A stretch of DNA of 64,000 nt, taken from an uncultured Bacilli bacterium (GTDB lineage Bacteria; Bacillota_I; Bacilli_A; RF39; UBA660). The stretch covers positions 1,106 to 65,105 of the forward strand of contig CALVRR010000003.1 in assembly GCA_944358705.1 (NCBI GenBank), read 5' to 3'. Below, one piece after another: positions 23,941-45,401 of this stretch (within the stretch, counting starts at the first letter, position 1; every line of letters starts with the position of its first letter). The position numbers and the translations under genes were made by a program. Below the pieces are notes generated by a model. The model did not search any database. It was not told where the DNA came from and saw nothing but the letters and a program-made list of their open reading frames with translations.

Positions 23941-23989
23941 CTCGAATAAAAAGTTCGAGTTTCCTATCAATCTGGTGCCGAAAGACAGA
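23941..23989 (-). repeat. Copy A: authentic tRNA-Thr 3' end plus downstream terminator hairpin (reference for copies B and C)
   Basis: TGGTGCCGAAAGACAGA is the complement of the tRNA 3' end. CTCGAA-taaaaag-TTCGAG hairpin lies at 23941-23959. Confidence 0.6.
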
Positions 23990-24046
23990 ATTGAACTGTC
24001 CGCTGATCCTTACCAAGGATCTGTTTTACCACTAAACTATATCGGC
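23973..24046 (-). tRNA. tRNA-Thr (anticodon GGU)
   Basis: Hand-folded, 74 nt. Acceptor GCCGATA/TTTCGGC with one mismatch. D arm GTTT-AGTGGTA-AAAC. Anticodon arm GATCC-TTGGTAA-GGATC. T arm GACAG-TTCAATT-CTGTC. Discriminator A and encoded CCA. Confidence 0.9.
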
Positions 24047-24093
24047 AGATAAGAGTATTCTATCATATAATGAATACTATTTCAATAACAATA

Positions 24094-24168
24094 TGGTGTT
24101 CAAGACGGGAATCGAACCCGTATCATCTCCGTCGGAGGAAGAGATTCTATCCGTTGAACTACTTGAAC
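24094..24168 (-). tRNA. tRNA-Arg (anticodon CCG)
   Basis: Hand-folded, 75 nt. Acceptor GTTCAAG/CTTGAAC. D arm GTTC-AACGGATA-GAAT. Anticodon arm TCTTC-CTCCGAC-GGAGA. T arm ACGGG-TTCGATT-CCCGT. Discriminator A and encoded CCA. Confidence 0.9.
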
Positions 24169-29188: not shown

Positions 29189-30124
29189 CTATAAAATAAA
29201 ACTAGTTTCATCTAAAAAGATAATTTCTGTTTGATATTTTAATTCCCTAACTAAGCGAAATAATGCTTCATCTTTTTTCTTGGCTTCTATCATAATATCG
29301 ATATCTTGTTTTGTTTTTTTTAATATTTTTAAAAAGTCTATAAATTCGTTACAGTTAATATAGTCGTTATGAGAACGCATTTCTTTTTTTGTTTTTTTCT
29401 TAGGAGAAGAAAAATGCATCTTGGGAGTCGTGGTCCAAGTCTTTACTATTTTTGGTAATAGCTCTTCTATTCTTTTTGTGGATGGGTTACAAATATGATG
29501 ATGATAATCTAATATGACTGGTATTTTTAAGTGGTCTGCTAGATATAGGCAGTCTTCTATGGTAAAGGATTTATCATCGTTTTCAATTGCAATTACTTTT
29601 TGTATTTCCTTTGGTAATTTTTTGAAATTGTTAATAAATCTTGTTAGAGATTTTTCTTTTCCAAATTCCATACTTCCGACATGTATTACTAATATGGGGT
29701 TTTTGATTTTTAAATATTTTAATAGATTGTAGTGATATTTTAATATTTCTATACTGCCATCTACTACTTTCTTTTTCGTACTATTTATTACACAATATTC
29801 TCCTGGATGAAAGTCTACCCTCATCTTTTTTTCTTGAATAATCTGGGCTATTTTTTGATATTCTTGTTGATAAGGGGTAAAATAATCTAGTGTTACTTCT
29901 TCTTTTGTTGCTAAAGGGATTAAATTTGAACTAATTCTAAAGAAATGGATATTATTTTTATTGTTATAGATTAGTAATTTTTGTAAATGAAAAAGGTTAG
30001 AACGTATTATTTGTTCTAACTTTTTATTGTCTTGTTCTTCTTTATATTTTGTATAGGGATAGGTACTAGAAGAAGTACCTATTATGGTTTCACTAATACA
30101 GGCGTAGCCTAGTCGTATTTTCAT
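29189..30124 (-). CDS. uvsE: UV damage endonuclease (UvdE/UvsE)
   Basis: MKIRLGYACIS, FFRISSNLIPLA, HPGEY, VIHVGS and LDYHHH are characteristic UVDE TIM-barrel motifs. Start follows GGTGA. Confidence 0.8.
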   Translation of the reverse strand: MKIRLGYACISETIIGTSSSTYPYTKYKEEQDNKKLEQIIRSNLFHLQKLLIYNNKNNIHFFRISSNLIPLATKEEVTLDYFTPYQQEYQKIAQIIQEKKMRVDFHPGEYCVINSTKKKVVDGSIEILKYHYNLLKYLKIKNPILVIHVGSMEFGKEKSLTRFINNFKKLPKEIQKVIAIENDDKSFTIEDCLYLADHLKIPVILDYHHHICNPSTKRIEELLPKIVKTWTTTPKMHFSSPKKKTKKEMRSHNDYINCNEFIDFLKILKKTKQDIDIMIEAKKKDEALFRLVRELKYQTEIIFLDETSFIL

Positions 30125-30154
30125 ATTATCACCAGTATTAGTATTTCCCATATT

Positions 30155-30670
30155 TTATCGATATAATCCTTTTTCATAGGCTTTTTCATAAGCTTTTTTA
30201 TCTTTTTCTTGGTAATATTTGATTGCTAGAGCTACCATAATTCTATCTGGATAAGTATTTTCAATTTGAGTTATTTCTTCTCTTGTTAATTTATAACCAC
30301 TAATAAAGCGAATTATGGCATTTTCCGGACGTGTTAACATATGATTTATAATTTCTTCTCTAGACATTATATGATCTATTCTAATTTTAGAAGTTGCTGT
30401 TAGGTTATCATAACCATAATAATTAAAGGGATCGCTAAAAGTTAAAATATCTCCTAATGCCGTTACTGTTGCAATACAAATATCTTCTTCTAAACCATTT
30501 ACATAAGCTAAAGTATCTTCTAAATAAGGAGTAAAATGAAAACCAGTTCCGTTTACTCCTTTAGTTAAAATGGTTGTTTCTGGTAGAGAATAGGTTTTTC
30601 CTTCTTTAAATTTCATTCCATATTGATTGGTCATGTCTTTATTTAATGATTTAAAACCACTTCTTGTCAT
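30155..30670 (-). CDS. Hypothetical protein (171 aa)
   Basis: Clean ORF with a GAGGTAG RBS, packed tightly between nadK and uvsE. No catalytic motif recognised. Confidence 0.5.
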   Translation of the reverse strand: MTRSGFKSLNKDMTNQYGMKFKEGKTYSLPETTILTKGVNGTGFHFTPYLEDTLAYVNGLEEDICIATVTALGDILTFSDPFNYYGYDNLTATSKIRIDHIMSREEIINHMLTRPENAIIRFISGYKLTREEITQIENTYPDRIMVALAIKYYQEKDKKAYEKAYEKGLYR

Positions 30671-30672
30671 TT

Positions 30673-31461
30673 CTACCTCACAAATTTATCATTAATCTTT
30701 TTAACAAAATTATATTCTTTCATTCGAAATACGGAAATTTCTCTTTGTTGAAAAACGGATAATTTTTCTACTTTTGGATAGATGATATTATCTCCGTCGA
30801 TACTTAACATTAAATCTTTTGTTCTGCCTGTTGGTCGTATCGTGATTTCTTTATCGCTAGGTAGGATAACCGAATTTAATAAATTACGATAAGAACGGTT
30901 GTTTAATGGAGCTATTGGAGTTACTTGTAGTGTATGAAAGGTATTATATACAATACTTCCTCCATAACTTAGATTGTAGGCAGTAGAACCGAAGGATGTA
31001 GAAACTAGTAAACCATCTCCTACAAATCTTTCTAATAGTTGTCCATCGACTTCGATATCTAGATTGGCGGTGTTTAGATTGCTATCTCTAACTACTACTT
31101 CATTTAATGCTACGTGTCTAGAACTACTATCTTTCGTAGAGATTACAATTTCTTCCACTCCAATTTGTTCTACTTTATAATCGTTTGTTTGTAAGGCGGA
31201 TATAAAAGAGTCAATTTCATCTACATTTACTTCCTGGGCAAATCCTAATGTCCCAGTATTAATTCCTACGTATAGACATTCTTCATTAAAATTTGCATTT
31301 TTTACCATTCGTAGAAAGGCACCATCCCCACCGATGGCAATTGCTAGATCGTAATTATTTTCTACAATAGAAAGGCCTGCTTCTTGTAATTTTTCTGCTA
31401 CTTTTGAAGCAACATACCTTGATTCATCATTATTATTTACAAATAATCTTACATTTTCCAT
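30673..31461 (-). CDS. nadK: NAD kinase
   Basis: GGDGAFLR (GGDG motif), NTGTLGF, and the ST.FGSTAYNLSYGG region. Confidence 0.9.
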   Translation of the reverse strand: MENVRLFVNNNDESRYVASKVAEKLQEAGLSIVENNYDLAIAIGGDGAFLRMVKNANFNEECLYVGINTGTLGFAQEVNVDEIDSFISALQTNDYKVEQIGVEEIVISTKDSSSRHVALNEVVVRDSNLNTANLDIEVDGQLLERFVGDGLLVSTSFGSTAYNLSYGGSIVYNTFHTLQVTPIAPLNNRSYRNLLNSVILPSDKEITIRPTGRTKDLMLSIDGDNIIYPKVEKLSVFQQREISVFRMKEYNFVKKINDKFVR

Positions 31462-31462
31462 G

Positions 31463-32293
31463 TTACTTTCCTTTATATTTAAATAGTACAGAAGGACGAT
31501 GACCTTCTCCTGTTTTCATTTTCTTTGTTTTTTCTACTTTACTAGCAATGATTCTACGAAAGGCAGGATCTAATAGTTTTTTATTTAGTATTACTTCATA
31601 TACTTGTTGTAATTCCCCTAAGGTAAAGTATTCTGGCATCATATTAAAAACAATATCCGTATAGTTTAATTTGTTTCTTAAACGTTCGATTCCAGCTAAA
31701 ATTACTAAAGCGTGATCAAAGGCAATGTCTTTGTTTTTTTCTTCTACAAAGCGATAACGATCGGTTGTTTTTTCACGTAACTCCTTTTTTATAGCTAAGT
31801 GGATGGTTTCTGTTCCATTATCTAAAGTGATATCCACTATATTATTTTTTTCTTCTAATAATACTACGTCAAACCAAGATGCATTTTTATTTATCATATC
31901 TGTTAGTTTGTTTTTATCTACTAAAGCAATATAAGAAGTAGATACTACTCTAGTTCTAGGATCTCTATCAATTGCATCATAGGTATATAATTGTTCTAAG
32001 TATATGTTTGATAGGTTTGTTTCTCTTTTTAGGACATTTTTAGCACATTCCGCTAATGTTTCAGTCTTAGGATTTAAAAATCCACCTGGTAAACACCATT
32101 TTCCTTTGTATGGAAAATCGTCTCTTTTCACAAGCAAAATACTCATCATTTTCTTACTTGTTTTACGATAATTTGTTTGTTCTTGGTCGGATACACTAAT
32201 TAGTAGAATGTCGGCAGTCATAGATAATTGATCAAATGCCTTTGGGTCATAGTCTTTTAGAAATTCTTCTTCAGTTTTATATTCTTTTTTCAT
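31463..32293 (-). CDS. nrtR: Nudix-related transcriptional regulator of NAD metabolism (NrtR family)
   Basis: The N-terminal Nudix fold has a degenerate Nudix box (WCLPGGFLNPKTETLAECAKNVLKRETNL). The C-terminal winged-helix segment reads FTLGELQQVYEVILNKKLLDPAFRRIIASKV, similar to the NrtR pattern F....Lq..ye.i.g..ld..NFRRk. Confidence 0.7.
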   Translation of the reverse strand: MKKEYKTEEEFLKDYDPKAFDQLSMTADILLISVSDQEQTNYRKTSKKMMSILLVKRDDFPYKGKWCLPGGFLNPKTETLAECAKNVLKRETNLSNIYLEQLYTYDAIDRDPRTRVVSTSYIALVDKNKLTDMINKNASWFDVVLLEEKNNIVDITLDNGTETIHLAIKKELREKTTDRYRFVEEKNKDIAFDHALVILAGIERLRNKLNYTDIVFNMMPEYFTLGELQQVYEVILNKKLLDPAFRRIIASKVEKTKKMKTGEGHRPSVLFKYKGK

Positions 32294-32305
32294 AAAATCA
32301 CCTCT

Positions 32306-32324
32306 TATTTATACTTTGATTATA
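32306..32324 (-). promoter_or_regulatory. Weak candidate operator in front of nrtR
   Basis: TATTTA-TACTTTG-ATTATA lies directly next to the RBS. The position matches the stronger sites, but only 9 of 12 half-site positions match. Confidence 0.25.
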
Positions 32325-32394
32325 ACATATATTAAGAAAAAAATAATTATTATTTATTTTTCTTCTATATTTTTTTGTTAAATAAAATTTCAAG

Positions 32395-32871
32395 TTATGA
32401 TTTTATAATTGTTAAAAGCATTTCAATTATTTTATCGATGACGTGGTCTTTATTTAATTTTCTACTTTCTTTGTGTACTTCCATTTTTTCTTGATAATAC
32501 TTATCTTTTTCTTTGTCATAAATACTAATATAGACCACATTATCTTTCCCTACAGGGTTGGCTGGATCTTGTCTATTTAGTTGCCCTGTGATTCCTACTC
32601 CGTAGTCACTATTTGCAAACTTCGTTATGTTTTTACTCATTTCATCGGCAGTTTCTTGACTATATACGGTATATTTGTCAATTACTTCACTAGATACTCC
32701 CATTTTAATTTTATATTCATTTGAGTAAGTAACAGCACTAAATTTTAATATTTCACTCGCTCCTTCACAATTCGTAATGGCGTTCGCTACTCCTCCTCCA
32801 GTACATGACTCCATAGTAGCAATTGTTTTTCTTTGTTCTTGCAAAATATGTATAATCTCTTTAAAATCCAT
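32395..32871 (-). CDS. pncC: NMN amidohydrolase, CinA C-terminal domain type (PncC)
   Basis: ATMESCTGGGVANAIT is the signature of the CinA/PncC deamidase domain. 158 aa, stand-alone. Confidence 0.8.
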   Translation of the reverse strand: MDFKEIIHILQEQRKTIATMESCTGGGVANAITNCEGASEILKFSAVTYSNEYKIKMGVSSEVIDKYTVYSQETADEMSKNITKFANSDYGVGITGQLNRQDPANPVGKDNVVYISIYDKEKDKYYQEKMEVHKESRKLNKDHVIDKIIEMLLTIIKS

Positions 32872-32883
32872 TTTTTATTCTCC

Positions 32884-33453
32884 TTATCTTGTTTTCATAT
32901 ATTTTTTGATATCACATCTATCTATTTGTAATTCTTCATTAATATCAATAAAAGGAACACTTTCTAAATTACTACCTAATTTATTTAAAACAATATCAAT
33001 AGCACAATCTTTTTCTTTATAAAATTCTACCGAAGAAAAGACTTTGTCCTTATCTGGTATTTTAATTCCAATTACAGTATCTAGGCTTATTTCGTCTTTT
33101 ACTTGATATTCATCTTCATAAGGTGAGAAACGCTTACCAGGAAACAGTCTCGATAATTTGCGCCCTAATTCATAATTATAATCTTCTATATACTTCGTAT
33201 TATTTACTGGAATTCCAGCAAAGATAAAAGCATAAGAAGAAGAAATAAACCTTTTATAAGAACTATTCCATACTGATTCTTCTCTTTTTGATAAAGAAAT
33301 ATAATCTAGTCCATTCCAAGTAGGATGATTCAGTTTCTGATATCCTTGTTTTCTTCTAGAAAGAATGGAACCAGCATTTAAAATATCATCTAATTTTTCC
33401 AGTTGCATACGATGATAAAACCAGTCTGGATTAATAACTATTTTCTTAATCAT
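32884..33453 (-). CDS. Hypothetical protein (189 aa), possible H-Y-E-type ADP-ribosyltransferase / Tpt1-DarT-like fold
   Basis: WFYHRMQLEKLDDILNAGSILS resembles the a-Y-H-x-T....L..IL..G.L start of DarT and KptA. DYISLS resembles YVHLS. EDEYQVKDEISLDTVIGIKIP resembles the catalytic-Glu strand. By eye only. Confidence 0.35.
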   Translation of the reverse strand: MIKKIVINPDWFYHRMQLEKLDDILNAGSILSRRKQGYQKLNHPTWNGLDYISLSKREESVWNSSYKRFISSSYAFIFAGIPVNNTKYIEDYNYELGRKLSRLFPGKRFSPYEDEYQVKDEISLDTVIGIKIPDKDKVFSSVEFYKEKDCAIDIVLNKLGSNLESVPFIDINEELQIDRCDIKKYMKTR

Positions 33454-33593
33454 CTTGTTTTCCTAATATCATCTACTTTTATTCTGTACTTTTTCAGATA
33501 AAATTATTTAACATTTCATAAAATATAGATGAACCTTTCTATTAATTTTGATACTTATTCATATGCTTCTTGTTATACTTTAGCATAAACTTA

Positions 33594-34499
33594 TTATTTT
33601 AGCAAAACTTTCTTGCCGAAACCTGCTGTTACTTTATTGTCTGATGTATATACTAATTGTGTTGTATAAGGGCATTCACAATCCTTTATCATTCTAGCAT
33701 AATATTCTACTAATTTATGATGTTTTGTTAAATAAATACCATCTACACATTCACAATACTCTCTACTATAAAAATGATGCCCAGGGAAGAAATTATCATC
33801 CAGATGAGAAAATAAATCGTTAAAATTAATAAATTCTTTTTCTGCATAAGAATTACATTTCATTAATGAGACAAAACCTGTTTTATATACACCTATATCT
33901 CCTACATATGTTAACATGTTTTTAATCTCTTCTAAGGAATTGATTCCACTTTTCATAATCATCGTATTTATATTAATAATTTTTTTATCTGTTAGGCTTT
34001 GCCCTAAATCAATGATATCATTTGTTGTTGCAATCTTTTTAGAATGAAAAATACTTTCGTTTTTTCTGTCATCATAGTGATGTCTAGAGATATGAATGCT
34101 TTCTAATTTATTTACTTTATCATAGTTTTTCAATTCTCTACAATGATATCCATTAGTGGATATCGCCACTTCCATATCTTCATCTATTTTATAAATTAAA
34201 TCTAATACTTGAAATAGTTTCGTAGGATTTGTCATTGGTTCCCCACCGGTAATACTAATACCATGAAGTATATCTTTTTCTTTTAGATAACTGATGACAA
34301 AAGCTAGTTTTTCTAGATCTATCGTTCCAAAATCCTTACTTTGGCTATTAGCGCAAAACTTGCAGTTGGCAAAACATTGGTCTGTTAGTTTTATATATAG
34401 TCTTAAAGTTGGTTTTGTTTTTCTTAGTTTGGTTGGGCTATCTGAACAATAATAATCTTTTACTGGTAATTCTTCATCAAAGATTTTTATTCTTTCCAT
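33594..34499 (-). CDS. Radical SAM enzyme of unknown specificity
   Basis: LTDQCFANCKFCAN (CxxxCxxC), ITGGEP, and C-terminal CEC...(25 aa)...CEC. ATG at 34499 follows the AGAGGTGG RBS; the track ORF starts at a TTG 9 nt upstream. Confidence 0.8.
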   Translation of the reverse strand: MERIKIFDEELPVKDYYCSDSPTKLRKTKPTLRLYIKLTDQCFANCKFCANSQSKDFGTIDLEKLAFVISYLKEKDILHGISITGGEPMTNPTKLFQVLDLIYKIDEDMEVAISTNGYHCRELKNYDKVNKLESIHISRHHYDDRKNESIFHSKKIATTNDIIDLGQSLTDKKIININTMIMKSGINSLEEIKNMLTYVGDIGVYKTGFVSLMKCNSYAEKEFINFNDLFSHLDDNFFPGHHFYSREYCECVDGIYLTKHHKLVEYYARMIKDCECPYTTQLVYTSDNKVTAGFGKKVLLK

Positions 34500-34501
34500 A
34501 T

Positions 34502-34888
34502 TTAACAACCACCTCTATACGTACTCCTTTGTCCGCTACAACCAGTAGACCAATAAGATGGTTCATATGATGATCTGCAAGGATCACTGTGGTAGTGATG
34601 ATAGTGAATGGTTTCTTGTTCTCTTTTTACCTTTTTCTTAGGTTTATCTGAAGTAGTATTTTCTAATAAAGCACTGATATCACAACTTCCTAGTTTTTCT
34701 TTTATCGTTAGTAATTCATCCGTGCAATCAATCACTTGATCTAGGTCACTTAATGTATTATCATCTGCCATTTTTGTTAAATCTAAATAACTTCTAAATT
34801 GCTTTAAGTTCCTTTTTGTTTCTTCTTTTTGAGTACTTTGACTTATGATTTTTCCTACAAAATCAATTAAATCTTGTCTTTCAAACAT
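34502..34888 (-). CDS. 128-aa protein with a His/Tyr/Cys/Gly/Ser-rich C-terminal tail (candidate radical SAM substrate)
   Basis: Helical, charged N-terminal region of about 90 aa, then a KPKKKVKRE linker. The tail is IHYHHYHSDPCRSSYEPSYWSTGCSGQRSTYRGGC and ends on Cys. Its stop codon is 2 nt from the radical SAM ATG. AAGGAG RBS. Confidence 0.6.
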   Translation of the reverse strand: MFERQDLIDFVGKIISQSTQKEETKRNLKQFRSYLDLTKMADDNTLSDLDQVIDCTDELLTIKEKLGSCDISALLENTTSDKPKKKVKREQETIHYHHYHSDPCRSSYEPSYWSTGCSGQRSTYRGGC

Positions 34889-34890
34889 AA

Positions 34891-35898
34891 TTATTCTCCT
34901 TTTAATAATTTATTTACATATTCTTTTGCTTTTTCATAACGTTCTTCGTAATTTCCTGTAATTGTTTCGTATTTAATGTGATTTTCTTTTAATATTTGTT
35001 TTAATATCTTATTATTTTCTTTTCTTACTTCGTCTTTTCCATAAGTTCTTGTGCCATCTTGTACCCAGGCGACATCTGGTTCTAGAAATAGATATAAATC
35101 ATAATTATTTAAATTAGAAATACTAGTGGCGATAGTTTCAAAATCTTTTTCACTTTGTTCTTTAAAGCCTAGTTTGTAATAATATAATGTAATTAATGAA
35201 TCGGTGTCGATAAATAGAATTTTATTAGCATGTTCTAAAGCAATCTTTTCATCTTGTTTATGCTGAAAAAGTATTTCAAAGTAGTGATACTTTTGCATAT
35301 TATCAATTCCACCTGCTTCATCACAGATATATCTTCCTGCTTCTTCTACATGCGTAGTGTTATATGCTTTTGCTAGATTTCTAACTAGTGTTGTTTTACC
35401 ACAACTTTCTGTACCAATGATGCATACTTTTTTTGTATAATATTTCCTTACACATGCTGGAAGATAATCAAAATATTTATATGGATTTTGTCTAATTTCT
35501 GTTGAAGATATATTAATTTCTTCTCTATCAAAATAGATAACTTTACTTTCATTATATAGATTTTCCCATAGGTTTTGATTTTTATAATCACTTCCTGCAA
35601 ATACTACGTCTATTTTTCTTCCTATATATTTTTTTACATCTTGTACTCCTTGTTCCCAGTCATATGTTTCTTTATTTAAGTTCTTTGAATAGATTGGAAA
35701 TACTTCTACATTTTCCATATCTTGAGTAATATTTTTTAGCCACGTGATTCTGGTTTTTTCGTCTATTTCTTTTGGATCATCACTGATACTTATTGGAATA
35801 TATAGTTTTTTGCATTGATTCTTTGCCATGATGATATCGTTTACATGACCTAAGTGTAGAGGATTAAATGTTCCTCCATACATTCCTATTTCATACAT
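34891..35898 (-). CDS. nadR: Bifunctional NMN adenylyltransferase / ribosylnicotinamide kinase (NadR-type, no HTH)
   Basis: GGTFNPLHLGH (nucleotidyltransferase HxGH) and GTESCGKTTL (P-loop of the RNK domain). Confidence 0.8.
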   Translation of the reverse strand: MYEIGMYGGTFNPLHLGHVNDIIMAKNQCKKLYIPISISDDPKEIDEKTRITWLKNITQDMENVEVFPIYSKNLNKETYDWEQGVQDVKKYIGRKIDVVFAGSDYKNQNLWENLYNESKVIYFDREEINISSTEIRQNPYKYFDYLPACVRKYYTKKVCIIGTESCGKTTLVRNLAKAYNTTHVEEAGRYICDEAGGIDNMQKYHYFEILFQHKQDEKIALEHANKILFIDTDSLITLYYYKLGFKEQSEKDFETIATSISNLNNYDLYLFLEPDVAWVQDGTRTYGKDEVRKENNKILKQILKENHIKYETITGNYEERYEKAKEYVNKLLKGE

Positions 35899-36575
35899 TT
35901 TACATCCTCCTTTGCAATCTTTGACCAGTTATAATAACCATAAAAAGCATTTACTAAATATACTGCCCACATGGTTACCATAATGTAGTCTTTTACGTGC
36001 CACCACATAATTACTGTAATAATATCTATTACTATCCATAGTAGCCATTGTTCTCTATATCTTAATACCATCAATAGATTAGCAACAACAGAGATTACTG
36101 TAGAGGCACTGTCTAGTAAAGGATTTGTACCACCTAAGTGGTTTAATAAGTATTGGTATAGAAAAATACCTATTCCTGTAATTATTAATAAGATAATAGA
36201 ATGCTTTATATTTAACTTCTTTCCTTGTACTTCATCATCTTCTTCCTTGGTATTTTTACTCCATAAATAGTAACCAATGAATTGTAGTGGTAGATAATAG
36301 ATAGCATTTAACATCACTTCTCCATAGTATTTGTGAATCCAAGCAACTATTATATAACCTAGGATGTTGAAGAATCCCCAGAAATACTGACTTCTTTTTC
36401 CCTTTGCACAAAGTACTACACAAAATATTCCAGATATCGCAGCAATCGCATCAATTACTATATAAATTAAACTATCTTCTTTATTTATGATGGCAAAATA
36501 AGTAGTGAAGAGTGTGACTGCTAGAATCATACTCCATTCAAAGACTGAAAACTTTTTAATAGCTTTTAATAGCAT
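35886..36575 (-). CDS. pnuC: Nicotinamide riboside transporter PnuC
   Basis: Seven-TM protein with W-rich motifs (WLLWIVIDIITVIMWW, YGYYNW) typical of PnuC. Start taken at MLLKAIKKF after GGAAAGGAAG. Confidence 0.8.
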   Translation of the reverse strand: MLLKAIKKFSVFEWSMILAVTLFTTYFAIINKEDSLIYIVIDAIAAISGIFCVVLCAKGKRSQYFWGFFNILGYIIVAWIHKYYGEVMLNAIYYLPLQFIGYYLWSKNTKEEDDEVQGKKLNIKHSIILLIITGIGIFLYQYLLNHLGGTNPLLDSASTVISVVANLLMVLRYREQWLLWIVIDIITVIMWWHVKDYIMVTMWAVYLVNAFYGYYNWSKIAKEDVKCMK

Positions 36576-37185
36576 AGAAACACTTCCTTTCCACCTTTTC
36601 TTCATATAAGTGATTTTCTTTTATATATTGATATACTTTTTTATCTAGATATTTTTTGATATTACCTAGTTTTTTCTTTTTTATTTCTTCTCTAATATAA
36701 GTAGAAGATAATGTTTCTTCTTTGATAGAAGTTACGATTATATTTTTTTGATAATTTTTATATTTTTCTAATAATGGTTCTAATTCGTCGGTTGTTCTTT
36801 TAATAACTAAAATTTTATAGTTTTTTAAGATATAGTCTCCTCTTTTCCATTGATCTATATAACTTAAATTATCTGTTCCACAAATAAAGTAAATGTCATC
36901 TTCTGGATATTTCCTTTTGAAATGATCTAGGGTTTCATAGGTATAGACTGGCCTATCTTGTAACTCATACTTACTTAGGGATAAATCTTTTTCATGTTCT
37001 ATCATAAGTGTTAACATTGTATACCTAGTAGTATTTGATTCTAGGTTATTTTTATATTCATATTTTGTTCCTGTTGGTACAAAGATAACTTTATCGACAT
37101 AACCTTGTTTAATTAATTCTTTGGCTATTTCTTTATGCATTTTGTGAGGGGGATTAAAGCTTCCTCCAAAGATTCCTATTTTCAT
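36556..37185 (-). CDS. nadD: Nicotinate-nucleotide adenylyltransferase
   Basis: IGIFGGSFNPPHKMH (GxFxPxHxxH) and ISSTYIR (ISST motif). Overlaps the prs stop by 4 nt. Confidence 0.85.
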   Translation of the reverse strand: MKIGIFGGSFNPPHKMHKEIAKELIKQGYVDKVIFVPTGTKYEYKNNLESNTTRYTMLTLMIEHEKDLSLSKYELQDRPVYTYETLDHFKRKYPEDDIYFICGTDNLSYIDQWKRGDYILKNYKILVIKRTTDELEPLLEKYKNYQKNIIVTSIKEETLSSTYIREEIKKKKLGNIKKYLDKKVYQYIKENHLYEEKVERKCFYAIKSY

Positions 37186-38255
37186 AATCTTTTCTCCTTT
37201 CGTAAGTCTAAAATCTTTTCTTTCCCATTAAATAAAGGTTTTAATGATTCTTTTTCATGTAATGCGTTTATGATATCTGCGATATTTTCAGAACAGTCTA
37301 CGGTATGAAACCATTCTTTTTCTCTGTATTCTTCTGGGATATATGAAAGATTGGTTGTATATAATTTATCAAAATAATGATTTTTATAAGCGTTATTGAA
37401 TTCTTCTATTCCTTCTGTAAATAATGAGAAGGTAGCGATAAAGTATACTTTGTTGGCACCATCTTTTTTTAATCTTTCTCCTACTTCTAACATAGAAGTA
37501 CCACTAGCTATCATATCATCTACGATTAGAATATCTTTTCCTTCTACACTTGGTCCCATATAGGTGTGTTCAATGATTGGATTTTTCCCATTTACTACTT
37601 TCGTTAGATCTCGTCTTTTGTAAAATACTCCTACATTGGTATCTAACATTTCAGCAAAATATCTAGCACGTTCTGTTGCTCCCATGTCTGGACTGATTAC
37701 TAAAATATCTTTTAAATTCTCAGTTTGTAATAAGTCTTCTAAGATTGTGTTTGTAGGGTAAAAATTTTCAAATGGTAAGTTAGGAATGGCATTGGAAATG
37801 GTTGGATCATGGGCATCAAAAGTAACGATATGATCTACTCCTAATCTTTCTAATTCTTGTAAAGCTATGGCACAATCTGCGGATTCTCTTCCTTTTCGTT
37901 TGTGTTGTCTTGATTGATATAGCAATGGCATAATTACTGTTACTTTTTCAGAATATCCAGAGATTGCAGAAATTGTTCTTTTAATATCTTGAAAATGTTC
38001 ATCTGGTGCCATATGATGAGTAAATCCATGCATATTATAAGTAATTCCGTAATTACCAACATCGGCTAGTAAATATATATCTTTTTCTCTAATACTATCT
38101 TCTATTTTTACTTTTCCTTCTCCGTTAGAAAATCTGCTGGCAGTAATATTTACTATATAATCGGTATTTTCTTTTTTCTTGTTTTTTAATTTTATATTTA
38201 CTTTTTCTCCTAGCTCTTTTATATTGTCCAATACTATTAATTTTAAATTATTCAT
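37182..38255 (-). CDS. prs: Ribose-phosphate pyrophosphokinase paralog (long form)
   Basis: RFSNGE, DAHD, ILIVDDMIASGTS (PRPP-binding loop). 357 aa with an insertion (NYGITYNMHGFTHHMAPDEHF). Confidence 0.75.
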   Translation of the reverse strand: MNNLKLIVLDNIKELGEKVNIKLKNKKKENTDYIVNITASRFSNGEGKVKIEDSIREKDIYLLADVGNYGITYNMHGFTHHMAPDEHFQDIKRTISAISGYSEKVTVIMPLLYQSRQHKRKGRESADCAIALQELERLGVDHIVTFDAHDPTISNAIPNLPFENFYPTNTILEDLLQTENLKDILVISPDMGATERARYFAEMLDTNVGVFYKRRDLTKVVNGKNPIIEHTYMGPSVEGKDILIVDDMIASGTSMLEVGERLKKDGANKVYFIATFSLFTEGIEEFNNAYKNHYFDKLYTTNLSYIPEEYREKEWFHTVDCSENIADIINALHEKESLKPLFNGKEKILDLRKEKRL

Positions 38256-38267
38256 ACTATCACCTCT

Positions 38268-38286
38268 TATTAATATTTTGTTAATA
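38268..38286 (-). promoter_or_regulatory. Operator-like palindrome (candidate NrtR box) next to the prs RBS
   Basis: TATTAA-TATTTTG-TTAATA, immediately upstream of the GAGGTGA RBS. Confidence 0.5.
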
Positions 38287-38306
38287 TCTTTGTTTAAAAA
38301 AATATG

Positions 38307-38711
38307 TTATCTTCTAAATTCCTTTACTTGTTTTTTGGCTTCTATTTTTATTCCATTACAGTAGGATTTCTCTTTGCATCTTTCTGATGGTCCCCAACCT
38401 GTCCAGGTGGTATCGATTCCATTATCTATCCATAGTTTCTTTACTTGATAACCTTGTTCTTCTAATAAATCTTTAAAAATTCCTTGGTATTCCTCATAAG
38501 GTATATTTCTTTTTATTGGTATTTCGGTTCCTAAAAGAGAAGCTGTTCCAGAAAGTTCTATGGTTGTTACTGCTGCGGTGTGTTCCCCTGTATAGTAACT
38601 TACTTGCTCTTTTGATGTCTTCATTTTTACAGTTCCATTGATACCTTCTTTTCTTTTGTAATAATCCGTTAAAATATTTTCTACTTGTGTTTTATTTAAT
38701 GTCATTTCCAT
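38307..38711 (-). CDS. Hypothetical protein (134 aa), first gene of the prs-nadD-pnuC-nadR transcription unit
   Basis: Clean ORF with a GAGAGGAG RBS. No motif recognised. Preceded by a promoter and two operator-like boxes. Confidence 0.55.
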   Translation of the reverse strand: MEMTLNKTQVENILTDYYKRKEGINGTVKMKTSKEQVSYYTGEHTAAVTTIELSGTASLLGTEIPIKRNIPYEEYQGIFKDLLEEQGYQVKKLWIDNGIDTTWTGWGPSERCKEKSYCNGIKIEAKKQVKEFRR

Positions 38712-38727
38712 AGTTACTCTCCTCTCT

Positions 38728-38746
38728 TATTACTTTTTTGTTAATA
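38728..38746 (-). promoter_or_regulatory. Operator-like palindrome next to the RBS of ORF 38307..38711
   Basis: TATTAC-TTTTTTG-TTAATA. Confidence 0.45.
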
Positions 38747-38782
38747 ACATATTCTGTAAGTAATACAGATTTTCCCATCTGT

Positions 38783-38818
38783 TATTAACATTATATTAAT
38801 ATCTATTTCTTTTGTCAA
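38783..38818 (-). promoter_or_regulatory. Sigma-A promoter with an overlapping operator-like palindrome
   Basis: Minus strand TTGACA (38818-38813), 17 nt, TATAAT (38795-38790). TATTAA-CATTATA-TTAATA (38783-38801) covers the -10. The roughly 44-bp cassette is almost identical to 45362-45405. Confidence 0.6.
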
Positions 38819-38914
38819 CCTTTTTTTCGTTTTTTTCAAACTTTTTCTTTAGAAAAAAATTATAAATTGTTAAACTATATGTTATAATATCTTTCCAAAA
38901 GGAGCTGTTTTGAT

Positions 38915-39421
38915 ATGAGTGAGTTTTATGATTATTTTAGTAAACAAAGAATAAAACCCTCTAGTATTCATAGAAGTGATTATCATCCTAGTATTGCAAA
39001 TTCTAGTATTGGATTATTATCTAGAAGTTTTGATACCGATATTAGTTCTTCTTTTCTTTCTTTTGATGTTGTTTTGAATGATACTTTAGAACGAATTGGT
39101 AATATTGGTTTTCACGATTCTAGCTTTGAGGAGCTGTTTTATGGTGGAAATGTAGATTATGCTATTTATGATAGATTTCAAAAACAAGGATATGGGACAC
39201 AAAGTTTAGCACTTTTAAAAGAATTGTTGCGAGATAATTCTTACGCTATAAAAAATGGTTTACTTATATCTACTCTTCCAGAAAATATTTACTCTCAGAG
39301 AGTTGCTATTAAAAATGGTGGAGTTTTGGTTTATGAGGGACAAGTACCAGAAGATAATTTGCTTTATCAACTAGATCATGTTAAAGAAGTGAAAGTTTAT
39401 CAGATTCAGATGAAAAAGTAA
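38915..39421 (+). CDS. GNAT-family N-acetyltransferase
   Basis: YAIYDRFQKQGYGTQSLALL has a Q/RxxGxG/A-like acetyl-CoA loop. 168 aa, AAGGAG RBS, divergent from the NAD operon. Confidence 0.65.
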   Translation: MSEFYDYFSKQRIKPSSIHRSDYHPSIANSSIGLLSRSFDTDISSSFLSFDVVLNDTLERIGNIGFHDSSFEELFYGGNVDYAIYDRFQKQGYGTQSLALLKELLRDNSYAIKNGLLISTLPENIYSQRVAIKNGGVLVYEGQVPEDNLLYQLDHVKEVKVYQIQMKK

Positions 39422-39425
39422 CTCG

Positions 39426-40478
39426 TTATTTTTGAGTTACTTTTTCTTTTGTGATATATTTTTTGAATCTTTGTTTTGCCCTATCCATATCAAAGTTACC
39501 ATCAAAATAAGGATTCCATGAATAATAATCGAAGTTTTCTTGTAATTTTTTTCTATCGTGATTTGGATACAATTTTCCATCTACGGTATAGTCGATAATG
39601 ATGTTGGTAGCAGTAATTACTTCTTTTTCTCTTAATTCATGTAATAGTTCTACTGCTTGATTGGTTGCAGCTACATTTCTATTCATTGCTTTTAATAATT
39701 CTTCATCAAAGCTTTGTACCGGACAGTGAACAATATCTAATAAATGGTTATTTGCTAGTTCTAATAATTCTTCTCTACATTGAATTAAATTCTGTGGTTC
39801 TATATTACGTATAGATATTTCTTTGTTACATTCTTTTGCAATCTTACACCAAGCTTTTACTTGAGATACCGTAGGACTATCAGAAGTTAGTACAACGTGT
39901 TCATGATTTAAAAATTCTTCTATCTGCTCTTCTGGTATCCTTTCATAATTATCTCCTCTTGTATGACGAATGGTACAATACTTACATTTTCCATGGCATC
40001 CTGCTCCTATTTTTAATGGATAATAATTTCGAAATAAGTTTCCGTCTTTTAAATTATCTTTGGATTCTTCAAAATCTGGGACCCAGAATGGTTTTTCGTA
40101 ATGAACTAAACTTCTATCCTCCAACTCCTGTCCTACTATTCTAACTACATCTAATCTTTTGATATAATCTGGTAGAGGAATATCCATTCTTTGTGCAAGG
40201 CAACCACCCATGAAAATATCTTTTCCTGTTTTTTCATGCAATTTCTTCGCTACTTCTAAGTCGTTTAGGACTGCTAAATCGGTTACTTGACAACCTAATA
40301 CTACAACACTATCCGCACTATTTACATCGTTTGTAAATCTATCTTTATATTTGTTGGCAAAAGATAACATATCACTCCATACTGACATACAAGCTGCACT
40401 TGTTGCATAAATTTTTCCTTTTAAGTCTTCTTCTTGGTAAAGAATACCTTCACCAAATTTATTATTTACTTTTTTCAT
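39426..40478 (-). CDS. Radical SAM protein with a methylthiotransferase-like N-terminal domain, no TRAM domain
   Basis: The N-terminal Cys triad context (SAACMS, VLGCQV, GGCLAQ) resembles the MiaB/RimO UPF0004 domain. GAGCHGKCKYCTIRHTRG is the CxxxCxxC site. 350 aa, ending without a TRAM-like tail. Confidence 0.65.
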   Translation of the reverse strand: MKKVNNKFGEGILYQEEDLKGKIYATSAACMSVWSDMLSFANKYKDRFTNDVNSADSVVVLGCQVTDLAVLNDLEVAKKLHEKTGKDIFMGGCLAQRMDIPLPDYIKRLDVVRIVGQELEDRSLVHYEKPFWVPDFEESKDNLKDGNLFRNYYPLKIGAGCHGKCKYCTIRHTRGDNYERIPEEQIEEFLNHEHVVLTSDSPTVSQVKAWCKIAKECNKEISIRNIEPQNLIQCREELLELANNHLLDIVHCPVQSFDEELLKAMNRNVAATNQAVELLHELREKEVITATNIIIDYTVDGKLYPNHDRKKLQENFDYYSWNPYFDGNFDMDRAKQRFKKYITKEKVTQK

Positions 40479-42527: not shown

Positions 42528-43160
42528 TCAAATTTTTTCTGTTTTTACTAAACCTTTTGCTTTTTCAATGGTAAATTGTGACTGAAGATCTGTAATATAT
42601 CCATTGTTTACTAATTCTATAGCTTCTTCAAAACTACATTCAAAATAACGAATAATTTCATCTTTATCCAAGTTTTGTTCTTTTGTTTTTTCACATTCTA
42701 AGGCAACCATACTGTAGTTATAGGCAGCACTGCATCCTTGATCTTGGTAAAAACTAGCTAATAGTTGCATTTCCTCTGGTACATATCCAGTTTCTTCTTC
42801 TAGTTCTCTTTTTCCTGCAGTTAATGGATCTTCTCCCGTTTCTAAATATCCAGCCGGTAACTCTACACATACCGTTTCTTTCGTGAATACTCTTGGTTGT
42901 ACTACTAATAAAGTATTTCCTTCTTTGGTGATTGGTAAAATAATTGCAGCACTACCATCTTTTCCTCTTTTTACAATTTTTTCTCTTGGAATTATTCTTC
43001 CGTTTTGTAGTTGGCAATTGTAACTTTCTACATTAATAAATCCTTTTCTTTGGATAGGTTCTGTTCCTTGGTATATAAATTTTTCTTTTTGTTTTTCTAA
43101 TTTTATCGTTTGTAATTCTTTTATGTAATCTCTTAATTCTTCAAGTTTTTCCTTGCGCAT
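42528..43160 (-). CDS. Nudix hydrolase, ADP-ribose pyrophosphatase-like
   Basis: ELPAGYLETGEDPLTAGKRELEEETGY matches the Nudix box GX5EX7REUXEEXGU. Confidence 0.75.
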   Translation of the reverse strand: MRKEKLEELRDYIKELQTIKLEKQKEKFIYQGTEPIQRKGFINVESYNCQLQNGRIIPREKIVKRGKDGSAAIILPITKEGNTLLVVQPRVFTKETVCVELPAGYLETGEDPLTAGKRELEEETGYVPEEMQLLASFYQDQGCSAAYNYSMVALECEKTKEQNLDKDEIIRYFECSFEEAIELVNNGYITDLQSQFTIEKAKGLVKTEKI

Positions 43161-44647
43161 TTTATACGTTCCTTTCCTTTTTCTTCTGGTTTATTTTGAG
43201 TATTTTTCATTCTTTCTTCAATTTCATTTTGATGAAACTCTATTAATTCTTGTTTTAACATTCTTAATTTATCAGATAAATCTACATAATATTCATGTGG
43301 TTTTTCAATTCTTGTTACTTCTGGATATAGTGTTTCAAACTCTCTCTCGCAATATTCTTGTTTTTCTTGTAAAGTAGGGTCTTGATATACCAACTCTCCA
43401 TTTATGAAAATTGGTACTAGTAGGCTTCTTACATTGTAATTTGTTAGATTTGTTTTCTTCCATGTTTCTACTGGATGAACTAGAGTATAATGGTCTTTAT
43501 TAATTTGTTCTTCCGCTAAAGTAATAACATCTCCTAAGGCATAACCAGTTTCTTTATCGTAGAAACGATGTACTTTTTTATATCCAGGGTTGATGGTTTT
43601 TATACTATCGTTACTTACTTTGATACGTGGCACTGCTTTTTTGTTTTCTTCTACGGCTACTAATTTATATACTCCGCCAACTCTTTCTTTTGGAGCGGCA
43701 ATATTGTCTCCAGCACCAATGGAATTGATCTGTGCTCCTTGTGTAATTAAATCTCTAATCGTATATTCATCTAAGCCGTTGGATAAACAAATTCCGGTAT
43801 CTTTATAACCTGCGGCATCTAACATTTTTCTTGCTTCTTGAGATAAGTAAGCTAAATCTCCGCTATCGATACGAATACCTTTAAATGGATAGCCATTTGG
43901 TGTTAAATATTCGTTTGCAACTCTAATTGCATTTGGAACACCACTATGTAAAGTGTCATAGGTATCTACTAGGAATACACAGTTATCTGGATTACTTTTT
44001 GCATATTTTAAAAATGCATCGTATTCATCTTCACTTTCAGTTACTAATGAGTGGGCCATTGTTCCCATGACCGGAATATCGTATTGCATACCAGCATAAG
44101 TGTTGGATGTTCCTACGCATCCACCGATATATGCACATTTACTTGCTTCTATTGCGGAATCAATTCCTCTCGCACGTCGTGCTCCAAATTCCATGACTGG
44201 AATTCCTTTTGCTTCGTTCGTGATTCTCTTGGCAGCTGTCGTTACTAATGATCCGTGATTGAAATTAGCAAGTAGTGCGGTTTCTAAGATTTGTGCTGTT
44301 ACGGCATCGGCTTTTACTGTTAATACTGGTTCGTTTGGAAATACTACGGTTCCATCTGGTACGGCATAAATATCTCCTTCAAATTTTAATGTGCTTAAAT
44401 AGTTTAAAAATTCTTCGTTGAACTTTCCTAATTTTCTTAAGTAGTTTAATTCCTCTTCTCCAAAGTGCAAGTTTTTAATATAATTAATTGTTTCGTCTAA
44501 TCCACCACTAATTGTGTACCCACCATTAAATGGGTTGCTACGAAAGAAAATATCAAAGTATACTTGTTCTTCTTTCTTCCCTTCGTTAAAATAAGTTTGA
44601 GCCATTGTTAACTCATAAAAATCTGTCATTAATGTTTTATTTTTCAT
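43133..44647 (-). CDS. pncB: Nicotinate phosphoribosyltransferase
   Basis: LMTDFYELTMAQ, EFGARRA, GTSN and GTMAHS are classic Gram-positive PncB motifs. Confidence 0.9.
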   Translation of the reverse strand: MKNKTLMTDFYELTMAQTYFNEGKKEEQVYFDIFFRSNPFNGGYTISGGLDETINYIKNLHFGEEELNYLRKLGKFNEEFLNYLSTLKFEGDIYAVPDGTVVFPNEPVLTVKADAVTAQILETALLANFNHGSLVTTAAKRITNEAKGIPVMEFGARRARGIDSAIEASKCAYIGGCVGTSNTYAGMQYDIPVMGTMAHSLVTESEDEYDAFLKYAKSNPDNCVFLVDTYDTLHSGVPNAIRVANEYLTPNGYPFKGIRIDSGDLAYLSQEARKMLDAAGYKDTGICLSNGLDEYTIRDLITQGAQINSIGAGDNIAAPKERVGGVYKLVAVEENKKAVPRIKVSNDSIKTINPGYKKVHRFYDKETGYALGDVITLAEEQINKDHYTLVHPVETWKKTNLTNYNVRSLLVPIFINGELVYQDPTLQEKQEYCEREFETLYPEVTRIEKPHEYYVDLSDKLRMLKQELIEFHQNEIEERMKNTQNKPEEKGKERIKCARKNLKN

Positions 44648-44696: not shown

Positions 44697-45293
44697 TTAA
44701 TTCTTCTTACTTACTAATTTGATTCCTTGCTGCTTCATTAATAATTTTGCAGCTCTTACATATTCGCCTCTTGCTTCTTCGTTGTAGGTGGCGATTGCAT
44801 CTTCATATACTTTAATTTCTACTTCACGATTCCATTGGTCATAAAAATTAGCAAGTCCCATCGCTCCATTTAAATCACAAATATCGGTACAGCAACCCAT
44901 TAATCTGACCTCTTCCACATTTTCTGCTTCGGTTGCTATTTCTCTAAATTTCGGTGCCTCCATAAAACTTGTTGAATTCTTTTCTATTGAAATCGTATCA
45001 TCCATTTCTTCGAATAGCTTTAACTCATCTACTAGTTCTGCTTCCCTTGTACCTTTTACACAATGTTTTGTATCCTCATAACGTTTAAATTCTACTGCGT
45101 TTTTATCATGAGCATCTTTTACGATGATAACGATGAAACCATCATCATGTGCTTCTTTGATAAGTTCTTTTTGTCTTGGAATAATTCTTTTGATGTTTTT
45201 ATCATGTAAAACTCCTTCCTCCAAAAAGCCATTCACCATGTCAACAAGAATTAGCATTCCTTTGTAAACTTTAAGATTTTTCACTTTGTTCAT
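44697..45293 (-). CDS. pncA: Isochorismatase-family hydrolase, probable nicotinamidase
   Basis: LILVDMVNGF (catalytic Asp region), a mid-protein Lys, and GCCTDICD (catalytic Cys). The genomic context is next to pncB. Confidence 0.7.
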   Translation of the reverse strand: MNKVKNLKVYKGMLILVDMVNGFLEEGVLHDKNIKRIIPRQKELIKEAHDDGFIVIIVKDAHDKNAVEFKRYEDTKHCVKGTREAELVDELKLFEEMDDTISIEKNSTSFMEAPKFREIATEAENVEEVRLMGCCTDICDLNGAMGLANFYDQWNREVEIKVYEDAIATYNEEARGEYVRAAKLLMKQQGIKLVSKKN

Positions 45294-45307: not shown

Positions 45308-45326
45308 TATTTACATTTTATTAATA
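45308..45326 (-). promoter_or_regulatory. Operator-like palindrome next to the pncA RBS
   Basis: TATTTA-CATTTTA-TTAATA. Confidence 0.4.
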
Positions 45327-45365
45327 ACAAAGTTTAAAATTTTACAAGTACTTTTTTTCACTTGT

Positions 45366-45401
45366 TATTAACATTATATTAATAACTATTTCGTTTGTCA
45401 A
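45366..45401 (-). promoter_or_regulatory. Sigma-A promoter with an overlapping operator-like palindrome (pncA-pncB-nudix-nadE unit)
   Basis: TTGACA (45401-45396), 17 nt, TATAAT (45378-45373). TATTAA-CATTATA-TTAATA (45366-45384) covers the -10. Confidence 0.6.

Follow-up and report, generated by a model that had tools for sequence, protein, structure and literature searches.

A recurrent gene pair encoding a cysteine-terminated protein and a radical SAM enzyme beside NAD salvage genes of gut Bacilli and phages: a possible substrate-maturase or carrier system

In the 64,000-nucleotide stretch analyzed here from an uncultured Bacilli bacterium (contig CALVRR010000003.1; the whole stretch is hereafter called the window), the genes for the salvage of nicotinamide riboside (NR) to NAD are followed by two genes, one encoding a 128-amino-acid (aa) protein that ends on a cysteine, which we call X, and the other encoding a 301-aa radical S-adenosylmethionine enzyme, which we call rSAM. 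The pairing of X and rSAM is not a matter of chance, and we tentatively consider them, at slightly less than an even chance, a cognate pair of an undescribed family, in which a Cys-terminated helical scaffold is combined with a radical SAM enzyme of the MoaA fold. With the same reserve, we propose that X would be the substrate or carrier and rSAM its maturase, that the chemistry would take place at the C-terminal Cys, and that the pair would be accessory to the salvage pathway of PnuC and NadR; the assignment of X as the probable substrate comes from its co-occurrence with the enzyme. No description of such a pair was found in the literature searched, and no curated model represents it. The elements of the two genes are as follows, A4 and A8 being the rSAM family alignments behind the statements on residue invariance.

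34502..34888, minus strand: gene X, 128-aa protein with a C-terminal Cys, candidate substrate or carrier (open reading frame and translation)
34652..34879, minus strand: N-terminal helical domain of X, residues 4 to 79, presumed docking module (AlphaFold2 model)
34505..34609, minus strand: disordered tail of X, IHYHHYH...STGCSGQRSTYRGGC, with the terminal Cys128 (translation; predicted local distance difference test score, pLDDT, below 50)
33594..34499, minus strand: rSAM, 301 aa, uncurated family (PF04055 and PF13353 only)
34353..34376, minus strand: CxxxCxxC radical SAM cluster motif C42/C46/C49, CFANCKFC (translation; invariant in A4 and A8)
34446..34448, minus strand: Cys18, N-terminal, candidate ligand of an auxiliary cluster (invariant in bacteria and phages)
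33747..33755, minus strand: CxC motif C249-E-C251, candidate ligands of an auxiliary cluster (CEC in the translation; invariant in A4 and A8)
34074..34088, minus strand: S-R-H-H-Y signature of the rSAM family (translation; S138, R139, H140 and H141 invariant in A8)

The ATG of X lies 2 nt past the TAA of nadR, and the TAA of X lies 2 nt ahead of the rSAM ATG (34499), both exactly as described in an initial annotation of this DNA, which had also placed the ribosome-binding site of rSAM inside the tail codons of X, where we find the Shine-Dalgarno-like stretch AGAGGTGG within the Y-R-G-G codons. The same 128-aa and 301-aa genes are present in independent public gene calls (four contigs). An alternative TTG start of rSAM occurs at position 34508; since the homologues listed are nearly all of 300 to 310 aa, and mostly of 301 aa, we take the ATG at 34499 as the start.

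The arrangement recurs in all 17 species-representative genome loci with readable upstream sequence (18 loci when the 26-nt remnant in L010 is counted), where an open reading frame (ORF) of 116 to 148 aa terminates with a gap of -1 to +14 nt to the beginning of rSAM. The S-R-H-H-Y signature, used as a metagenome search pattern, recovered 80 loci. The search for a same-strand ORF of 55 to 210 aa covered 2.6 kb on the upstream side and 1.5 kb on the downstream side of rSAM; of the 82 loci whose upstream sequence reached 450 nt or more, 72 had a Cys-ended one, compared to 2 Cys-ended ORFs among 188 unrelated ones. The pairing persists down to approximately 26% rSAM identity, and a Cys-terminal ORF stands beside rSAM in 11 of 11 viral contigs from IMG/VR. 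The conservation of X and its tail next to rSAM, together with the linkage to nadR and pnuC, on which the initial annotation had made its reading depend, thus holds beyond the clade of the window and into phages, and it holds above all for the terminal Cys.

X has no match in Pfam, NCBIfam, PADLOC, PHROGs or the PDB fold library, the best E-value of the fold search against the PDB being 4.7. The AlphaFold2 model, obtained with 48 homologues, presents helices at residues 4 to 17, 21 to 38, 43 to 66 and 71 to 79 and a disordered region from residue 79 to residue 128, with a pLDDT of about 74 to 88 for residues 1 to 70, about 59 for residues 71 to 80 and below 50 in the tail; the succession of a helical region and a tail, already noted from the sequence, is therefore recovered. 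The conserved residues of the N-terminal domain are F10, L35, T38, K63 and D70. With a profile built from the ORFs upstream of rSAM we identified 74 homologues of X, of 120 to 156 aa, 70 of which end on Cys, the remaining four being truncated. In the window, the translation ends exactly on the IHYHHYHSDPCRSSYEPSYWSTGCSGQRSTYRGGC tail first reported for it, and C117 and C128 are invariant within the clade. The tails of the close clade are Ser/Gly/Tyr rich, contain 2 to 5 PSYSSSCGG-like units and end with [Y/S/T]-R-x(0-2)-C, the KHYxHY motif being common, not universal.

The distant X proteins of the metagenome loci are of 72 to 99 aa, with a charged helical tail in which the last residue is the sole Cys, and their ends read ...GRC, ...SRC, ...DRC, ...WRC or ...GGC. 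Alignment of the type I and type II X profiles with hhalign showed colinear N-terminal domains (probability 76%, E = 2e-5), and, as judged from these profiles, the N-terminal domains of the two types are homologous. As for the residues preceding the terminal Cys, variation is observed across the family (GRC, SRC, WRC, AHC, SSC), and the universal feature of X is a single C-terminal Cys, usually after Arg. It follows that, of the His/Tyr and multi-Cys tail first taken as the hallmark of the protein, the terminal Cys is universal, whereas the His/Tyr motif and the multiple Cys residues are a lineage-specific decoration. Two kinds of codons are used for the Arg that precedes the terminal Cys, namely AGR, often doubling as the ribosome-binding site of the next gene, and CGN, and it is therefore at the protein level that this Arg is selected. 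We thus rejected the idea that Arg or Gly before the terminal Cys is a by-product of the embedded ribosome-binding site, which is partly true (AGGAG-type codons) but not the sole cause, given the frequency of CGN. Read-through or selenocysteine incorporation past the terminal Cys was also discarded, the stop being TAA or TAG in most loci.

On the basis of the available profile models, rSAM is outside every curated family. Its Pfam matches are limited to the generic PF04055 and PF13353, and it does not fall into a characterized family, the outcome that would have refuted the reading of the initial annotation, every NCBIfam match being far below its cut-off: 59.5 bits against 284 for MoaA (TIGR02666), 50.7 against 380 for the tungsten-cofactor maturase, 45.5 against 267.9 for HxsC (TIGR03977), 36.9 against 180 for viperin (NF038283), 30 against 300 for YydG (TIGR04078), 19.8 against 381 for PqqE (TIGR02109), 29 against 232 for the activase model TIGR02493 and 30 to 36 against 126 to 131 for NrdG. 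In the AlphaFold2 model of rSAM (pLDDT 78), the best Foldseek match was MoaA (TM score 0.66), followed by viperin (0.6) and EpeE/YydG (about 0.48), and a profile search against the PDB sequences ranked MoaA, viperin and EpeE/YydG alike, with E of about 1e-15. The search against the viral folds of BFVD returned generic radical SAM matches only, and PADLOC returned pVip with E = 3e-12, limited to the core. Neither a SPASM nor a twitch domain was found in rSAM, the SPASM-family NCBIfam models matching the core (residues ~30 to 165) with 17 to 24 bits against cut-offs of 225 to 625; no RiPP recognition element (RRE) or PqqD-like domain was found in rSAM or in the neighboring genes in Pfam, NCBIfam and the public gene calls (RiPP, ribosomally synthesized and post-translationally modified peptide).

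The homologues of rSAM number several hundred, nearly all of about 301 aa, and belong to metagenome-assembled genomes from the gut labeled Bacilli or Tenericutes, including "Candidatus Faecimonas" and "Candidatus Coprovivens" (Bacilli incertae sedis); the wider family, retrieved by exhaustive phmmer at E < 1e-10, comprises 267 representative clusters with 25 to 42% full-length identity. The residues invariant in both bacteria and phages are Cys18, C42/C46/C49, G85, E87, T115, S138-R139-H140-H141, N147, F151, G208, C249-x-C251, Y267 and G293, and the features of the proposed family (the N-terminal Cys, CxxxCxxC, SRHHY and CxC) are all present in the window protein. The CFANCKFC, GGEP and CEC motifs had been read correctly from the translation, the spacing between the two CEC motifs being 22 residues instead of the 25 first indicated. 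In regard to the auxiliary-cluster site proposed for the CEC pair, the first motif (C249/C251) is invariant, while the second (residues 274 to 276) is restricted to the close clade. The invariant Cys residues outside the core are three only, and Cys18 together with CxC would be suited to hold a candidate auxiliary [4Fe-4S] cluster in which, as in MoaA, one iron is left open.

The likeness of rSAM to MoaA and viperin thus comprises the closest folds, a similar size and a nucleotide-metabolism setting, to which, for MoaA, a possible three-Cys auxiliary cluster can be added. Different from MoaA, the candidate auxiliary Cys residues occupy other positions (the N-terminal Cys and CxC), and, different from both enzymes, rSAM has an obligate protein partner, and neither the C-terminal GG tail of MoaA nor the basic pocket of viperin was identified in it. 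We rejected an identity with MoaA, despite the similar fold, for the score far below cut-off and the context of NAD genes; with pVip, for the score below cut-off, the core-only PADLOC match and the lack of a defence context in the window; with YydG/EpeE, for 30 bits against 300 and a TM score of about 0.48; and with a PflA/NrdG activase having a GrcA-like partner, for the scores below cut-off, the absence of a conserved Gly motif in X and the variability of the residues before its Cys.

The initial annotation had read the two genes as a precursor and its maturase, naming sactipeptides and ranthipeptides, pyrroloquinoline quinone (PQQ) and mycofactocin as known examples. The conserved pairing of X and rSAM agrees with the general reading, and the identities with those examples do not stand. 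The sactipeptide/ranthipeptide identity was rejected for the lack of SPASM, of RRE/PqqD and of the characteristic precursor motifs; the PQQ identity for the PqqE score, the absence of PqqB/C/D at the locus and a tail without the E-x3-Y context; and the mycofactocin identity because MftC is not among the best 25 NCBIfam matches and X ends on Cys, not on Val-Tyr. The His-Xaa-Ser system was likewise discarded, with HxsC below cut-off and neither a second SPASM radical SAM enzyme nor HxsD nearby. Nevertheless, as for PqqA/PqqE and MftA/MftC, a ribosomal product is encoded just upstream of the radical SAM enzyme, C-terminal chemistry is expected, the product is probably intracellular, and the setting is one of metabolism, not of antibiotics. 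Unlike PqqA and MftA, peptides of 20 to 30 aa, X is a folded protein of 70 to 150 aa whose key residue is the terminal Cys instead of Glu/Tyr or Val-Tyr, and no PqqD or MftB recognition protein accompanies it. Similarly, YydG/EpeE and HxsC are, like rSAM, small enzymes without SPASM, which act on or pair with ribosomal peptides, and the window X tail has His/Tyr-x-Ser triads reminiscent of the His-Xaa-Ser system; different from the latter, HxsB and HxsD partners are missing, and the His/Tyr motifs are absent from the distant X proteins.

The formation of thioethers by radical SAM enzymes on Cys-containing cores is well known, and this, together with the Cys-rich repeat tail behind a long leader-like domain, is what speaks for an ordinary secreted RiPP, that is, a sactipeptide- or ranthipeptide-like antimicrobial or signal merely located in the NAD operon. 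We consider this explanation very improbable, in that rSAM shows neither a SPASM/twitch signature nor an RRE, the window operon carries neither a protease nor a transporter, only one Cys and a tail that is helical and highly charged are seen in the distant X proteins, and pnuC/nadR are linked to the pair again and again in hosts and phages that are unrelated to one another.

Returning to X as substrate or carrier of rSAM, a flexible tail whose free C-terminal Cys is universally conserved, and which always accompanies a single radical SAM family, suggests an enzyme-substrate or enzyme-carrier pair with chemistry at that Cys, and the presence of YydG/EpeE, which modifies a peptide, among the closest structures counts in the same direction. 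In the mechanism that we propose, the helical N-terminal domain of X would dock on rSAM, doing the job of a leader peptide, since the enzyme is devoid of an RRE domain, and the disordered tail would deliver the C-terminal Cys to the active site. There, the Cys may serve as a ligand to the open iron in an auxiliary Fe-S cluster held by Cys18 and CxC, and the 5'-deoxyadenosyl radical would modify the terminal Cys or a neighboring residue, either by a thioether or cross-link to an upstream Tyr or Ser or by oxidative decarboxylation, the SYSSSCGG-like repeats of the window clade being possible further modification sites. Since the operon contains no exporter or leader peptidase, the product is probably intracellular. 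It is possible to hypothesize that X and rSAM would serve the salvage of NR to NAD as an accessory, by providing a protein-borne or peptide-derived factor or by performing a radical step required in that pathway.

The genomic context of the pair points to this pathway, through the linkage to pnuC and nadR, seen in phages and in no fewer than two lineages of bacteria, and through a shared operator, from which a role in NAD metabolism may be proposed. In the window, the genes follow one another as unk134, prs, nadD, pnuC, nadR, X, rSAM, a 189-aa orphan ORF, pncC/cinA, nrtR and nadK, and the features are the following.

34891..35898, minus strand: nadR, NMN adenylyltransferase and ribosylnicotinamide kinase without a helix-turn-helix (HTH) domain; NMN, nicotinamide mononucleotide (NF005988, 212.7 bits against a cut-off of 201; PF13521, PF01467)
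35886..36605, minus strand: pnuC, nicotinamide riboside transporter (TIGR01528, 154.9 bits against a cut-off of 42; PF04973)
36556..37185, minus strand: nadD-like adenylyltransferase (PF01467 in public gene calls; synteny)
37182..38255, minus strand: prs, phosphoribosyl pyrophosphate synthetase (Pribosyltran_N, Pribosyltran and Pribosyl_synth domains)
38307..38711, minus strand: unk134, first gene of the operon, 134-aa protein without known function (no family match; conserved synteny)
38739..38818, minus strand: promoter TTGACA-17-TATAAT, then two 11-bp palindromic boxes, TGTTAATAACA and TGTTATTAACA (12/12 promoter match)
45319..45400, minus strand: second copy of the promoter/operator, ahead of pncA (44697 to 45293) and pncB (43133 to 44647) (sequence)
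32884..33453, minus strand: orphan ORF, 189 aa, in the slot of the ADP-ribosylglycohydrolase of sister lineages (no family match)
32395..32871, minus strand: CinA/PncC-type NMN deamidase domain (PF02464, E = 1.8e-30)
31463..32293, minus strand: NrtR-type regulator, Nudix and NrtR winged helix (PF21906, PF00293)
30673..31461, minus strand: NAD kinase, nadK (PF01513 and PF20143 in public gene calls)

In 18 of 18 close genome loci, X and rSAM lie between nadR (or nadD) and pncC, nrtR or nadK, even though prs, nadK and nrtR move. With the criterion of pnuC or nadR within a few kb, at least one of the two genes was present in the flanking sequence retrieved for 32 of the 38 loci with ≥55% rSAM identity and for 16 of 31 loci below 40% identity, and distant relatives (29 to 36% identity, on contigs of 41 to 56% GC) adjoin pnuC-nadR, in some cases with a nudix gene, in different orders. 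Many related loci also have a homologue of unk134 ahead of prs or nadD. Furthermore, the promoter-operator units at 38739 to 38818, which precedes the genes from unk134 and prs-nadD-pnuC-nadR to X and rSAM, and at 45319 to 45400, which precedes pncA-pncB, are nearly identical (TTGACAAA.GAAATAG.TATTAATATAATGTTAATAACA, with the second box TGTTATTAACA approximately 30 to 35 nt on), in agreement with the operator-like boxes common to the NAD units that had been noticed at first, and at least 17 related loci likewise carry the operator box ahead of the operon. The boxes mismatch the GT-N7-AC core published for NrtR. No Rfam match indicated a riboswitch in the operon leader, and no terminator-like site was found in the scanned region from 32200 to 39000, which spans the operon.

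In the distant part of the family, other architectures occur. A five-gene cassette, consisting of X, an LRR_5 protein, rSAM, a DUF2201 metallopeptidase-VWA protein and a MoxR-like AAA ATPase, was identified in L059, L069 (3766 to 8372), L070, L077 and L078, often followed by pnuC-nadR. In one of these loci (L059, 1940 to 3588), a Ter-operon-type ATP-grasp gene (PF15632) and a HAD-like gene were observed just upstream of the cassette. In one group, a second radical SAM enzyme, similar to HemN/STM4012, is encoded between X and rSAM (L027, 1141 to 2424; L083, 3701 to 4996), and the 737-aa protein P0207 is a natural fusion of both radical SAM enzymes; in a third group, an aromatic/histidine ammonia-lyase lies downstream. 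None of the genes of these variant cassettes (LRR, metallopeptidase-VWA, MoxR, second radical SAM enzyme, lyase) was found in the window.

The metallopeptidase of the distant cassettes could release the modified C terminus, a step that has a parallel in the pearlins. Like TglA with TglHI, which lead to 3-thiaglutamate, and like LysW and HypE, X is a small protein that offers its last residue on a flexible tail, and in the pearlins a C-terminal Cys is converted and a peptidase later frees the product (PMC9303977). Unlike in the pearlins, the Cys of X is genetically encoded rather than added by a tRNA-dependent ligase, and, unlike in the pearlins and HypE, the modifier is a radical SAM enzyme instead of a DUF692 or HypF-type protein; the comparison, made from the literature, involves no sequence homology.

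The pair is also found in phages. The huge phage genomes LR745206 and LR756502 (>600 kb) carry pnuC, nadR, X and rSAM together, with LR745206 showing the exact order of the window. A targeted scan of IMG/VR yielded the 11 viral contigs mentioned above, of 16 to 483 kb, in which nadR is present in 9 and pnuC in 8 of the 11, and 9 of the 11 loci have pnuC and/or nadR. The pnuC-nadR-X-rSAM order of the window recurs among these contigs. As side observations, a 233-aa homing-endonuclease-like ORF separates X and rSAM at 7286 to 7987 of L101, a 182-kb viral contig shared with L115, and a TonB-dependent-receptor-like gene precedes pnuC in the L101 contig and in L103, which suggests Bacteroidota hosts. 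The "moaA/nifB/pqqE" genes of KVP40-type phages were rejected as relatives, no homology being detectable.

PnuC and an HTH-less NadR constitute the phage NAD reconstitution pathway NARP3, for which an anti-defence function has been shown experimentally (PMC13464706). As in NARP3, adjacent pnuC and HTH-less nadR occur in phages and serve the salvage of NR to NAD; different from the two genes of NARP3, the set considered here comprises four genes, pnuC-nadR-X-rSAM, and is found in gut Bacilli, Clostridia-like contigs and jumbo phages. The report on NARP3 deals with two genes of Enterobacteriaceae phages, and no radical SAM enzyme or Cys-terminated protein is mentioned in it (PMC13464706). The adjacency of the pair to pnuC-nadR in jumbo and huge phages, and the demonstrated anti-defence role of PnuC-NadR (PMC13464706), raise the alternative of a conflict or counter-defence module, in which X and rSAM, with the LRR, metallopeptidase-VWA and MoxR ATPase proteins in some bacteria, would protect or restore NAD, perhaps by neutralizing NADase effectors or their products, and would ride with NARP3-like pnuC-nadR genes. 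The resemblance of the MoxR-VWA-peptidase neighbors to predicted conflict systems and the variability of the gene after rSAM (an ADP-ribosylglycohydrolase or the orphan ORF) are consistent with this alternative. We nevertheless regard it as improbable, considering that, in the lineage of the window, the pair belongs to a housekeeping operon under the same kind of regulation as pncA-pncB and does not lie in a defence island, and that the PADLOC matches are limited to the generic similarity to the viperin core.

With respect to the gene after rSAM, an ADP-ribosylglycohydrolase is encoded directly downstream in L001 (6940 to 7821; PF03747, E = 3e-35), L002, L013, L014, L021 and L050 to L054. Most loci lack this neighbor, which occurs in "Candidatus Faecimonas"-like strains and in at least one other sub-clade and has left a 43-aa remnant in L012 and L044. 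Its position immediately after rSAM, along with the NrtR regulator encoded in the cluster, whose effector is ADP-ribose (PMC2330246), would be explained if the Ser/Arg/Cys/Tyr-rich tail of X were mainly an acceptor of ADP-ribosylation, that is, an ADP-ribose buffer or signal read by NrtR and reversed by the glycohydrolase, with rSAM being secondary. This is the least probable of the explanations considered, as no ADP-ribosyltransferase was identified, the 189-aa ORF having no detectable family, the glycohydrolase is missing from most loci, and the obligatory rSAM and the terminal Cys would be left unexplained.

The 189-aa orphan ORF, found in the same place in at least 21 public contigs, has no family in Pfam, NCBIfam, PHROGs or the PDB, and we excluded it as a component of the system for the lack of conservation outside the species; by eye only, the spacing of R15, S53-L-S55 and E112-D-E114 is reminiscent of ADP-ribosyltransferases. 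A MiaB-like radical SAM enzyme (39426 to 40478, minus strand), truncated to the UPF0004 and radical SAM domains with no TRAM domain, was also excluded as a partner, since it adjoins rSAM in L005 only. Beyond nadK, a UvdE-type UV-damage endonuclease and a DUF7666 protein (29189 to 30670, minus strand) show conserved synteny, and the sole Rfam matches in the window are two tRNA genes (23976 to 24168, minus strand).

Several points weigh against X as a substrate or carrier in the service of NAD salvage. In the sub-group of 40 to 55% rSAM identity, pnuC or nadR was present in none of 8 loci, the neighbors being the HemN-like radical SAM enzyme or the histidine/aromatic ammonia-lyase, and therefore the chemistry is not intrinsically tied to NAD. 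The synteny is partly inherited, because all type I loci belong to one Bacilli lineage. Moreover, PnuC and NadR alone rebuild NAD in Enterobacteriaceae phages (PMC13464706), so that X and rSAM are dispensable for the core reaction. Finally, the consumption of a 128-aa protein per turnover would be costly at NAD-like amounts, and MoaA and viperin, the closest folds of rSAM, act on nucleoside triphosphates and not on peptides.

In the main rival explanation, the substrate of rSAM would be a nucleotide or nucleoside of the pyridine or adenine type (NAD, NMN, NR or ADP-ribose), with X as its partner rather than its substrate, the swinging C-terminal thiol serving as a donor of a hydrogen atom, an electron or sulfur or as a covalent carrier of the nucleotide intermediate. 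The best structural and profile matches are MoaA, whose substrate is GTP, and viperin, whose substrate is CTP, and pVip is the PADLOC match; the loci sit among nucleotide-handling genes, with the ADP-ribosylglycohydrolase beside rSAM in several lineages; and a recycled thiol partner would remove the problem of the stoichiometric cost. HypE, a carrier whose C-terminal Cys is part of a ...PRIC ending, is a precedent for such a role. On the other hand, rSAM has a single invariant Arg (R139), compared to the several basic residues that bind the triphosphate in MoaA and viperin, rSAM comes nowhere near the cut-off of either the MoaA or the viperin model, and the sub-group without a nearby NAD gene keeps the X-rSAM pair. 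Altogether, we judge this explanation unlikely, albeit one to be taken seriously.

The occurrence of a radical SAM enzyme with a ribosomally made partner is of a known general kind, and what is new here is the architecture and the context of NAD salvage and NARP3. The salvage by PnuC and NadR has been treated as a complete two-protein route, shown in 2026 as phage counter-defence (NARP3), and the presence of X and rSAM within it implies an unrecognized step, cofactor or control layer in the supply of NAD, under anaerobic or conflict conditions. More speculatively, and with a low probability in our estimate, the pair may perform a new radical reaction of pyridine-nucleotide salvage, in which X would give rise to a Cys-derived protein-borne cofactor or its thiol would act as a catalytic carrier in the making of a NadR substrate from a product of NAD breakdown or from an imported precursor, and the four-gene set of the jumbo phages would be an upgraded NARP3 directed against host NADases. 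For the radical SAM enzymes at large, a folded helical scaffold with a single C-terminal Cys, matched to an enzyme with neither SPASM nor RRE, would represent a new enzyme-substrate architecture and would extend the radical SAM chemistry of proteins and peptides.

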